Position numbers and translations under genes: made by a program
Notes under the pieces: model-generated
What the model was told of the DNA's origin: nothing
Databases searched by the model: none
Seen by the model: only the letters and a program-made list of their open reading frames with translations
Shown here: piece after piece, positions 36,625 through 51,520 of the stretch
Layout of the letters: each line of letters begins with the position of its first letter
Numbering within the stretch: the stretch's first letter is position 1
Assembly (NCBI GenBank): GCA_009698815.1
Contig: WLPJ01000006.1
Span: 55,081 to 119,080, forward strand
Reading direction: 5' to 3'
Length of the DNA stretch: 64,000 nt
From: Actinomycetota bacterium
Lineage (GTDB): Bacteria > Actinomycetota > Actinomycetes > Nanopelagicales > Nanopelagicaceae

Positions 36625-36753
36625 ATCGTAAGGGTAGGGCTAAAGATGAAAGATAAAGGGTTTTTTGAATCGGCCCCGGTGATTAAAAGATATCCACACG
36701 AAAAGAAAAAAACTAAATCAGTTTTCGTAACTGACTTAGGTTCAGCCTTGCGT

Positions 36754-36827
36754 ACCGCTGTAGCTCATTTGATAGAGCACCCCACCAACTATGGGAAGTG
36801 TAGCGGGTTCGATTCCCGCCAGTGGTA
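36754..36827 (+). tRNA. Degenerate tRNA-like gene (apparent anticodon AAC)
   Basis: Acceptor ACCGCTG/CAGTGGT; TA; D arm GCTC-ATTTGATA-GAGC; anticodon arm CCCCA-CCAACTA-TGGGA; T arm GCGGG-TTCGATT-CCCGC. Non-canonical C33, T37, GA in the D loop and a 6-nt variable region. Confidence 0.6.
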
Positions 36828-36837
36828 CGCACACCAA

Positions 36838-36873
36838 GTGGCCTCACGCTAGTTACGTGGGGCCACTTTGCAT
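36838..36873 (+). terminator. Intrinsic terminator after the tRNA-like gene
   Basis: GTGGCCTCACG-N7-CGTGGGGCCAC, an 11-bp stem followed by TTTGCATTT. Confidence 0.6.
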
Positions 36874-36888
36874 TTGTGACTCTGCGTA

Positions 36889-37093
36889 ACTACCCGCAAT
36901 TAATATTGTGAATATCGGCAAACATATCCGCCTCTCTCCCGGGGCGCTCCAGCACATAATCACCACACACCTGACAGAAGGCATGAAAGTAATAAACCCC
37001 AAGCTCTTCCATCCATTTGTAGTCATAGATAAATGAGACAACAACGGCGCCAAAATCTGGCAGTGACCGATGCCCGCGCGCACGATGGGCCGC
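36889..37093. repeat. 205-bp direct repeat, left copy
   Basis: Matches 50869-51073 with 5 mismatches counted by eye (36900, 36904, 36905, 36966, 37076). Confidence 0.95.
36890..37093 (-). pseudogene. Duplicated 3' fragment of the hypothetical gene 50870-51436
   Basis: Encodes ...AHRARGHRSLPDFG...FCQVCGDY...HNINCG-stop; no start and no 5' part. Confidence 0.85.
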
Positions 37094-50868: not shown

Positions 50869-51073
50869 ACTACCCGCAACTAACGTTGTGAATATCGGCA
50901 AACATATCCGCCTCTCTCCCGGGGCGCTCCAGCACATAATCACCATACACCTGACAGAAGGCATGAAAGTAATAAACCCCAAGCTCTTCCATCCATTTGT
51001 AGTCATAGATAAATGAGACAACAACGGCGCCAAAATCTGGCAGTGACCGATGCCCACGCGCACGATGGGCCGC
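50869..51073. repeat. 205-bp direct repeat, right copy
   Basis: Begins 1 nt beyond the stop codon of 50870-51436 and matches 36889-37093. Confidence 0.95.
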
Positions 51074-51436
51074 ATCTAGCTCAAGCCCCGCAAGCCCACC
51101 AACTTCGGCCACTGCATCCATCTCCACGACCAACCCACACGTGCAGTGCCATTGCTTACCCGCATAGTTAACGTAACCCCAATGCCATTTCTGGTGCTGC
51201 CACGAATTCAAATTCGCATAATGCAGCCACGCCTTATAGCGCCCGTACTTACGCATTCCGGATTTGCCATCCATCTTGCTGTGCAGTTCCTCTAGCTTTT
51301 CATTTGAAATTGAGACATCGACATAACTCTTCTTATTTCGCTTAGACATAACAAACCAGCCCTTAATGGACCTCATATAGAGACCCGCTCTTCTGGCGGT
51401 GTCTGTCATCGCCAGCAGGTCTTCCTTTAGAACCAC
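50870..51436 (-). CDS. Hypothetical phage-like protein with Cys/His (putative Zn) motifs
   Basis: HCTCG...HRARGH and FCQVYG...HNVSCG; start uncertain (MTDT, MRSI or MSKR). Confidence 0.7.
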   Translation of the reverse strand: MVLKEDLLAMTDTARRAGLYMRSIKGWFVMSKRNKKSYVDVSISNEKLEELHSKMDGKSGMRKYGRYKAWLHYANLNSWQHQKWHWGYVNYAGKQWHCTCGLVVEMDAVAEVGGLAGLELDAAHRARGHRSLPDFGAVVVSFIYDYKWMEELGVYYFHAFCQVYGDYVLERPGREADMFADIHNVSCG

Positions 51437-51520
51437 CGTGCGCGGTTGGCGCGGTTGGTACTAAGCAGCTAAAGGCTTAACGCTTAGTTCTTGACCTACT
51501 TTGAGTATAGACCTAGTGAC

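Follow-up and report, generated by a model that had tools for sequence, protein, structure and literature searches.

The locus considered here raises a simple question: what is the purpose of a gene that folds as a complete tRNA-Val and whose anticodon loop departs from the rules of decoding? It lies in a stretch of 64,000 nucleotides (hereafter the window), positions 55081-119080 of one contig (WLPJ01000006.1, here C19) of a 1.35-Mb genome (G000) with 46-47% GC, whose lineage is Candidatus Planktophila/Nanopelagicaceae, of the acI Actinobacteria. ARAGORN makes a single tRNA call in the whole window, a tRNA-Val(aac) at 36754-36828, and the Rfam tRNA model (RF00005) matches 36754-36827 with 46.6 bits, above its gathering score of 29. 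Our study shows that this gene is an intact member of a conserved, accessory and multi-copy family derived from tRNA-Val, which is almost confined to the Nanopelagicaceae. Judged from the substitution patterns of the family, its RNA is selected, on the plus strand, to keep the complete L-shape of a tRNA, with its four arms and its T-loop. As for its role, the explanation that we favor, with a probability of roughly one in two, is that of an autonomous, probably DnaA-controlled and non-decoding mimic of tRNA-Val, whose anticodon loop would make a kissing contact with another loop. A first-pass annotation of the window, made from the letters alone, had also proposed a tRNA mimic, and this remains in our judgment the best account of the sequence; the annotation had missed the family, the paralog, the DnaA box and the covariation between the anticodon and terminator loops. 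Our literature search found no paper that describes such an RNA, and the family is apparently undescribed so far. The parts of the unit are the following, in window coordinates.

36690..36698, plus strand: DnaA box ATATCCACA, differing from TTATCCACA at one position and lying about 57 nt before the inferred transcription start
36713..36739, minus strand: hairpin AACCTAAGTCAG...CTGACTTAGGTT followed by TTTTTTT, terminator-like for leftward transcripts (terminator scan)
36737..36742, plus strand: -10-like hexamer TAGGTT, 6 nt upstream of TGCGT (conservation)
36749..36753, plus strand: 5' leader strand TGCGT, pairing with 36827-36831 (RNAfold, family covariation)
36754..36827, plus strand: tRNA-Val-like cloverleaf, acceptor ACCGCTG/CAGTGGT, A73 at 36827 (ARAGORN, Rfam, covariance model R1)
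36787..36791, plus strand: AACTA, positions 34-38, complementary to TAGTT of the terminator loop (pair counts, duplex energies)
36828..36831, plus strand: 3' trailer CGCA, closing the 12-bp helix together with A73 (pairing, covariation, RNAfold)
36832-36835, plus strand: linker CACC(A), its sequence not conserved as CCA
36836..36876, plus strand: 3' hairpin and T-rich tail TTTGCATTTG (RNAfold, covariation)

The cloverleaf has a perfect T arm (GCGGG/TTCGATT/CCCGC, with a canonical TTCGATT loop), and it breaks the rules of ordinary tRNAs at the sites that the first-pass annotation had named. The anticodon loop at 36785-36791 reads CCAACTA (C33, anticodon AAC and T37, that is, U37 in the RNA), the D loop ATTTGATA contains a single G and lacks the GG (G18/G19) present in most relatives, a C27-A43 mismatch stands at the top of the anticodon stem, and the variable region (AGTGTA) has 6 nt. 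TGCGT at 36749-36753, the probable 5' end of the primary transcript, pairs with ACGCA at 36827-36831, and this 5-bp leader/trailer extension lengthens the acceptor helix to 12 bp, as had been proposed. Farther downstream, the stem 36836-36848/36856-36868 closes the loop CTAGTTA (36849-36855). This 3' hairpin had been described as an 11-bp terminator: the hairpin is real, its stem has 13 pairs (one of them G-U), and a consensus terminator scan does not call it because the U tract of the tail that follows (TTTGCATTT) is interrupted. We presume that it serves both as an intrinsic terminator and as the partner of the anticodon loop. The minimum free energy structure given by RNAfold has exactly the same architecture (-61.8 kcal/mol, z = -5.6, with none of 200 shuffles as good). 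The claim that did not survive comparison is that of a displaced CCA: the CACCA after the 12-bp helix is CACCT in the paralog and CACTA, CCACA or CCGCG in orthologs, and this variation among relatives makes it best treated as chance.

The paralog just mentioned is a second Val(aac) gene at C19:50017-50090 (L025:1565-1638), 41.8 kb upstream of the window copy and 5 kb before the window starts. It has the same TGCGT/ACGCA extension, a matching 3' hairpin, a perfect TTATCCACA box and an anticodon loop, CTAACTA, with 6-bp complementarity to the TAGTTA of its own terminator loop, and it represents another sublineage of the family, which is conserved separately. Normal tRNA-Val(UAC) and tRNA-Val(GAC) genes are also present in the host genome. 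With blastn, relatives of the unit were found in 24 genomes out of the 37 in the genus, and it is common for a genome to have several copies, a few kb from one another on the same strand. The alignment of 21 copies yielded a covariance model (R1) that covers the extension, the cloverleaf and the hairpin, and this model recognizes 119 full-length members, 117 of them distinct, in the fetched Planktophila/Nanopelagicaceae loci; the window copy scores 136.5 bits, among the highest. Of 151 genomes sampled from the order, 77 have full-length matches, in 8 of 12 genera; outside the Nanopelagicaceae, only one of about 238 genomes sampled from the class has a match. Around 20 complete or near-complete Planktophila genomes (about a quarter of the complete ones) have no member at all, and the gene is therefore accessory. 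It had also been suggested that the RNA might derive from a phage; two pattern scans of the IMG/VR viral contigs gave zero copies, blastn against 50,697 phage records gave zero matches, and the PLSDB plasmids hold no family-specific homolog, with one generic tRNA-like match of 67 nt only, which speaks against that origin.

Two kinds of sequences at the margins of the family deserve mention. One is an outlier from another family of the class (L165:2001-2129, genome G497), a Val(gac)-like gene with a 14-bp 3' hairpin and a wholly different leader/trailer helix (TTGGG/CCCAA), which has neither a DnaA box nor loop complementarity. The other is a second, more divergent tRNA-Val-like type (L141:2399-2471 and L032:4947-5019), called Val(tac) or Val(cac) by ARAGORN, with C37 and Rfam scores of 39-42 bits; a TTTTCCACAG box precedes it and a 3' hairpin like that of the family follows, but the loops of its anticodon arm and of its hairpin are not complementary.

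Selection on the structure was assessed in the 117 distinct members, a sample in which one genus predominates. Standard pairs occupy 94.6% of the pair cells, a value that column shuffles (80.6%) do not reach in any of 500 trials and that controls with slid partners (36-46%) leave far behind; it is important to consider that an alignment made with a covariance model is biased towards the modelled structure. Both sides have changed at 31 of the 43 counted pairs (37 nested and 6 loop-loop), and covariation extends over the first three acceptor pairs, the anticodon stem, the T stem and the 3' hairpin, where all 11 modelled stem pairs have changed on both sides and 99% of the cells are paired. In the extension helix, the middle pair is CG in 71 members, UA in 14 and UG in 7. 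Two points follow from these data. First, the nested helices contain 275 G-U against 53 A-C combinations (about 5:1), an excess that is expected only if the plus-strand RNA is what selection acts upon. Second, the stems and the extension have been kept by compensation, which indicates that the window copy is not a decaying pseudogene. The first-pass annotation had hinted at structural selection and had named a decaying tRNA as the alternative; more than 100 homologs that retain the stems by compensatory changes, together with the abnormal loop, bear out the former and contradict the latter, and neither random decay of the stems nor a normal loop is what the homologs display.

The extension is not a habit of the tRNA genes of this host. 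Its real tRNA genes lack a contiguous 5-bp Watson-Crick leader/trailer helix (tRNA-Gln(ctg) reaches 5 of 6 leader/trailer pairs when wobbles are counted), and a scan of 37 tRNA calls in the genome found no ordinary tRNA gene with a DnaA box. The idea that extension and box are general traits of tRNA genes in this genome was thus rejected, the ordinary genes having neither. The body of the molecule is also set somewhat apart, since the family scores 46-58 bits with the Rfam tRNA model and the real tRNAs of relatives score 62-74 bits.

Special attention was given to the anticodon loop. Decoding tRNAs have a near-universal U33 and a purine at position 37, and the known identity set of the valyl-tRNA synthetase (ValRS) consists of A35, C36 and A73. 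Among the members, position 33 is U in 81% and C in 17%, position 34 is G in 75%, A in 21% and C in 4%, and position 37 is U in 74%, G in 25% and A in 1%; in about 20 members, an 8-nt anticodon loop fits better than one of 7 nt. A35 (99%) and C36 (100%) are essentially invariant, and the discriminator 73 is A in 80%, G in 12% and U in 7% (G or U in 19%). The window copy has all three ValRS identity nucleotides, and with C33 and U37 it lacks the combination of U33 and a purine 37 in a 7-nt loop that decoding calls for. Its C33 recurs in orthologs of independent genomes (L002, L003, L004 and L063). The loop thus appears to have been released from decoding and used instead for a loop-loop contact. 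The frozen A35-C36 amid covarying neighbors suggests that a protein specific for valine tRNAs still reads this loop, ValRS being the obvious candidate.

The partner of that contact was identified by complementarity. In the window copy, positions 34-38 (AACUA) are complementary to the UAGUU of its own 3'-hairpin loop, and other members present other matching haplotypes: AACGA(A)/(U)UCGUU, GACUA(A)/(U)UAGUC, GACGAA/UUCGUC, CACGA/UCGUG, GACGG/CCGUC and GGCGUA/UACGUC, with GACUA opposite UUCGUC as an exception. Position 34 and its partner read GC in 85 members, AU in 21, CG in 1, GU in 2 and otherwise in 7; position 37 and its partner read UA in 60, GC in 28, UG in 2 and otherwise in 25; and the whole loop-loop pseudo-helix is 90.8% paired. 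On a tree of the remaining molecule, position 34 changes 11 times and its partner 9 times, while the state of the pair changes only 13 times. Double switches were found on backbones that are 88-96% identical (L011/L141, L001/L079, L138/L055, L041/L137 and L119/L139). L001 is the window copy; compared with L079, it has a different sequence in both loops, and the intervening stretch of roughly 70 nt is almost identical, which makes one long conversion tract unlikely. Gene conversion between the anticodon arm and the terminator was also rejected as the source of the complementarity, given that the two stems, compared by eye, are not homologous. The mean duplex energy of the anticodon loop is -4.7 kcal/mol with the member's own hairpin loop, -3.6 with those of other members and -1.4 with shuffled loops. 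Even within one array (L033), the copies carry different self-matching loops (AACGAA, CACGA and AACGA).

Upstream of the units, a DnaA box is found at a fixed distance. The 9-mer TTATCCACA occurs only eight times in the host genome, and five of these copies flank an open reading frame (ORF) of 470 aa on contig C7 that we take to be dnaA from its C-terminus and its neighbors (no family search was made), the next ORFs being read likewise as dnaN and recF. This clustering leads us to consider TTATCCACA as the oriC DnaA box of the organism. The region C7:18440-20360, in which the ORF is flanked on either side by clustered TTATCCACA/TGTGGATAA boxes, looks like the chromosomal origin and would define the DnaA-box consensus of the host. 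A box with at most one mismatch stands at -59/-58 from the model start in 97 of 116 units, compared with 0.4% of background windows, and some subgroups have two boxes about 30 nt apart. Among the 37 ARAGORN calls of the host genome, those with a box at about -65 are three: the two Val(aac) genes and one 'Gly(acc)'. A TAnnTT hexamer also holds a fixed position in the family (T is present at -11 in 79% of the units and at -6 in 93%), and from its location transcription would be expected to begin at the foot of the extended helix. The family units show no -35 consensus, and a sigma-70 consensus scan of the unit returned zero calls, so the promoter is predicted from conservation alone. Through the predicted box, DnaA probably controls the transcription of the units.

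Several observations were made around this upstream region. In the 'tRNA-Gly(acc)' (contig C3:361-435), the D arm is poor, G3-U70 is present and the CCA is encoded. Its leader and trailer pair with each other, a -10-like hexamer (TAACTT) precedes it, and a DnaA-type box, TTATACACA, stands at -66; this gene is possibly a third type of tRNA-like gene associated with a DnaA box. The minus-strand hairpin at 36713..36739, which reaches with its 3' arm into the -10 element, is conserved in the subgroup of the window copy only, and it would stop leftward antisense transcripts crossing the unit. In addition, a TGCGTAA(C/T) motif that repeats the unit-start TTGCGTA occurs some 12-20 nt beyond the terminator of several copies (window 36883-36890, L003, L005, L008 and L027) and just upstream of the -10 in other subgroups (L116).

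The mimic that we favor would work as follows. Each unit would be its own small transcription unit, consisting of a DnaA box, an AT-rich spacer, a -10 element and an RNA of about 120-125 nt that ends in a GC-rich hairpin with a U-rich tail, and DnaA would control its synthesis via the oriC-type box. The closed acceptor helix would leave the RNA as an unprocessed and uncharged tRNA mimic. Since the hairpin hangs on a 5-6-nt linker at the far end of the 12-bp acceptor helix, it should, by textbook tRNA geometry, be unable to reach the anticodon loop of the same L-shaped molecule, and the contact would therefore be made between molecules or with the trailer after its cleavage. The anticodon loop would thus kiss either the 3'-hairpin loop of another molecule, giving head-to-tail dimers, or a released trailer, and in doing so it would mask A35-C36 from the valine-specific reader.

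Different points weigh against this explanation. The promoter, the RNA ends, and the lack of processing and of charging are all deduced from the sequence, and the argument that excludes an intramolecular contact uses textbook tRNA dimensions, not a structural model. Searches for TROVE, FemAB, integrase and neighboring genes identified no partner protein of the RNA. About half of the real tRNA genes in the host genome have no encoded CCA and two of them have ACGC trailers, so maturation of the unit by RNase P, RNase Z and CCA addition is possible; moreover, about 15 members, which form a clade, have ACCA at positions 73-76. In the window copy, the isolated loop-loop duplex is weak, with only -2.3 kcal/mol, the pairing is disrupted in a subgroup whose loop is UUUGUC (TTTGTC in the DNA), and the position-37 pair is mismatched in 25 of 117 members, while the covariation of the loops could in principle come from a requirement at the DNA level. 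Finally, the family is dispensable, as the Planktophila genomes without a member demonstrate.

The main rival is a genuine accessory precursor of tRNA-Val, whose leader/trailer and hairpin would be removed, to which CCA would be added and which ValRS would charge; the product would perhaps be used in translation, as a nuclease-resistant or specialized isoacceptor, or by an enzyme that depends on aminoacyl-tRNA. We consider this explanation possible, although we would not expect it to prove right. The complete cloverleaf, the elbow nucleotides kept in most relatives, the Rfam scores above threshold, the retention of A35, C36 and mostly A73 while position 34 varies, the many real host tRNA genes without an encoded CCA and the clade with ACCA at 73-76 are all as it would predict. 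It does not sit well with the U37 of 74% of the members, the C33 of 17%, the 8-nt loops of a subgroup or the G or U discriminator of 19%, and the normal Val(UAC) and Val(GAC) genes are already present. It does not account for a leader/trailer helix that is kept by covariation and absent from real tRNA genes, and the way in which the terminator loop tracks positions 34 and 37 is left unexplained. A Fem-type aminoacyl-tRNA transferase was tried as the partner and rejected, being found in 2 of 17 genomes and not in the host; such transferases are absent from most carriers.

A bolder form of the favored mimic would make it a new class of bacterial RNA derived from tRNA: a self-addressed, DnaA-controlled tRNA-Val mimic in which reciprocal kissing between the anticodon and 3'-hairpin loops of different molecules would give closed head-to-tail dimers and would hide or expose the ValRS nucleotides, each island cassette having its own privately addressed copy. 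We offer this form as a speculation that is probably wrong in at least some respect.

The genomic surroundings bear on the next alternative, in which the unit is a recombination landmark at the DNA level (an attachment site or a homology anchor), with the loop complementarity representing inverted crossover cores and the tRNA fold being inherited baggage. The neighbors of the window copy are ABC transporters and sugar-catabolism genes. Compared with two complete genomes, the left flank is conserved and is followed by a mosaic of reshuffled blocks with units between them. Direct repeats of 205 bp (36889-37093 and 50869-51073, 98% identical) bracket a 13.98-kb sugar-catabolism insertion, and the first repeat begins 16 nt after the 3' hairpin of the unit; the earlier suggestion that the gene marks an island edge is therefore confirmed. 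The positionally conserved mosaic region and the same-strand arrays of units are what a landmark would leave, and the additive genomic islands of Planktophila (GI2-GI4) have been described as flanked by tRNAs (PMC12817590). Consistent with the landmark are also the truncated 5' parts of units, which stop just after the anticodon arm, and the direct partial copies of their own anticodon arm that 33 of 115 units have upstream (about -110 to -70), against 0.5% for foreign arms; downstream, none has such a copy. The upstream copies consist of the 5' strand and the loop (for example, in L087, L028, L076 and L092), are preceded by a decayed D arm and are followed by a TAGCAC-like motif and then the DnaA box, and the truncated units L091 and L113/L074 have a DnaA-like box about 22 nt after them.

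Despite this context, we regard an essentially DNA-level role as rather improbable. The adjoining island was inserted via the neighboring protein gene: in genome G014, the gene whose 3' end has been duplicated here lies about 0.6 kb downstream of the orthologous unit, with a degenerate second unit between them, which indicates that the 13.98-kb insertion is lineage-specific and entered through homology to the protein gene, not through the unit. No integrase (PF00589) is encoded on contig C19, and the only two tyrosine recombinases of the genome lie on other contigs; with about 310-340 aa, they are, by their size, presumably of the XerC/XerD type. Relatives have extra integrases, but these show no consistent proximity to the unit arrays (a loose one in G069 apart), 7 of the 8 genomes searched lack rve transposases, and an integrase or transposase partner was accordingly rejected for want of a consistent association. 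The searches of IMG/VR, the phage records and PLSDB found no phage, viral-contig or family-specific plasmid copy that could carry an attP. Above all, a DNA site has no need of compensated stems or of a 5:1 excess of G-U over A-C, which is the mark of strand-specific selection on RNA. It is important to note that the two roles are not mutually exclusive: the units seem to lie at the cassette junctions of additive islands and to act, at least passively, as recombination landmarks.

Other candidates suggested by the neighborhood were tried and rejected. Antisense pairing of the own-arm copy with the 5' UTR (untranslated region) of a divergent gene found no support in the orientation of the upstream gene (15 divergent, 14 same). 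A leader function for the downstream gene does not agree with its mixed orientation, which is convergent at the window copy and, in the family, 72 same and 37 opposite. Conserved neighbor genes were dropped as partners because the recurrent ones are unannotated, without an informative Pfam match, and look like island-border genes; two of these recurrent neighbor proteins have N-terminal hydrophobic, signal-like starts (by eye). Apart from the tRNA, the only gathering-level Rfam match of the window is a SAM-IV riboswitch (RF00634, 54.5 bits) on the minus strand at 51382-51496.

A replication module, in which the DnaA box and a kissing-loop transcript would be the relic of an integrated replicon or a site that titrates or regulates DnaA, is very unlikely. 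It would explain the oriC-type box at a fixed distance, the paired boxes of some subgroups, about 30 nt from each other, the AT-rich spacer that follows the box and the different loop specificities within the array L033. No Rep, partition or transfer gene was found near the unit, however, nor any family-specific plasmid homolog, there is typically one box per unit, and the kissing partners belong to the same transcript, not to an antisense pair. A decaying tRNA pseudogene or an assembly or sequencing artefact, to which the missing G18/G19, the C-A mismatch and a score below those of real tRNAs might point, has next to nothing left in its favor and counts as already refuted: the rule-breaking features recur in independent genomes, the helices are compensated across 117 sequences and the R1 score of the window copy is among the highest.

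The family was also compared with known systems. With elongator tRNA-Val and island-flanking tRNAs, it shares the cloverleaf, the T-loop nucleotides of the elbow (and, in most relatives, the GG of the D loop), A35-C36, usually A73 and the location at island borders; it differs from the elongator in its U37/C33 or 8-nt loops, the leader/trailer helix, the terminator-loop complementarity, the upstream DnaA box and its accessory, multi-copy nature, the normal Val tRNAs being encoded separately. Valine-accepting viral tRNA-like structures of the TYMV (turnip yellow mosaic virus) type also combine a non-decoding tRNA shape with valine identity nucleotides in an anticodon-like loop, but they form the 3' end of a genome and have a pseudoknotted acceptor with a free CCA, whereas the present RNA has a closed acceptor and is encoded by a bacterial gene of its own. 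The bacterial Y RNA YrlA, which has a long closing stem and is bound by Ro60/Rsr, resembles it in having a tRNA-like body whose paired 5' and 3' ends extend the acceptor arm, although the extension here is only 5 bp and the anticodon arm is complete. A Y RNA was rejected because TROVE/Ro60 (PF05731) is absent from the genome in a search with positive controls and because there is no Rfam Y-RNA match at E values up to 10. A tmRNA was also rejected, given that ARAGORN finds none, the acceptor has no G3-U70 and the full anticodon arm is present.

In T-box leaders, too, a hairpin-borne triplet that resembles a valine codon (GUU, GUC or GUG) pairs with an anticodon beside a terminator; in our family, the 'codon' is in the terminator loop of the tRNA-like gene itself and the pairing extends to positions 37-38. 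With no T-box sequence, no Rfam T-box match and a convergent downstream gene at this locus, a T-box riboswitch was discarded. ColE1 RNA I/RNA II, kissing-loop RNAs of plasmid copy control, and the RNA-only homo-oligomers OLE, ROOL and GOLLD share specific loop-loop contacts and copy-specific sequences; DnaA boxes lie near ColE1-type origins and RNA I is cloverleaf-like. We take these comparisons as leads only. The family differs from all of them in lacking replicon genes, in having both partners in one sense transcript, and in its small size and tRNA fold. The staphylococcal non-proteinogenic tRNA-Gly genes are likewise extra, rule-breaking tRNA genes (for example, in their loss of G18/G19) kept out of translation; unlike our units, their products are charged, feed FemXAB and have neither a closed acceptor nor a loop partner, and FemAB is absent from the host genome.

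The Nanopelagicaceae (acI) are the most abundant bacteria of freshwater lakes, and our results mean that island-associated tRNA calls in their genomes, at least in the region examined, represent a distinct RNA family. Three unexpected features with statistical support characterize it: a closed acceptor end, the co-evolution of anticodon and terminator loops, and an oriC-type DnaA box at a fixed position. One practical consequence is that calls of tRNA-Val(AAC/GAC/CAC) in such genomes should not be counted as decoding capacity. Another is that more than 100 natural compensatory variants are available for the study of loop-loop interactions based on a tRNA fold. For the biology of these streamlined oligotrophs, the units can serve as sequence markers of the junctions between cassettes in the flexible part of the genome, and they suggest a possible connection of the replication initiator with a tRNA mimic.

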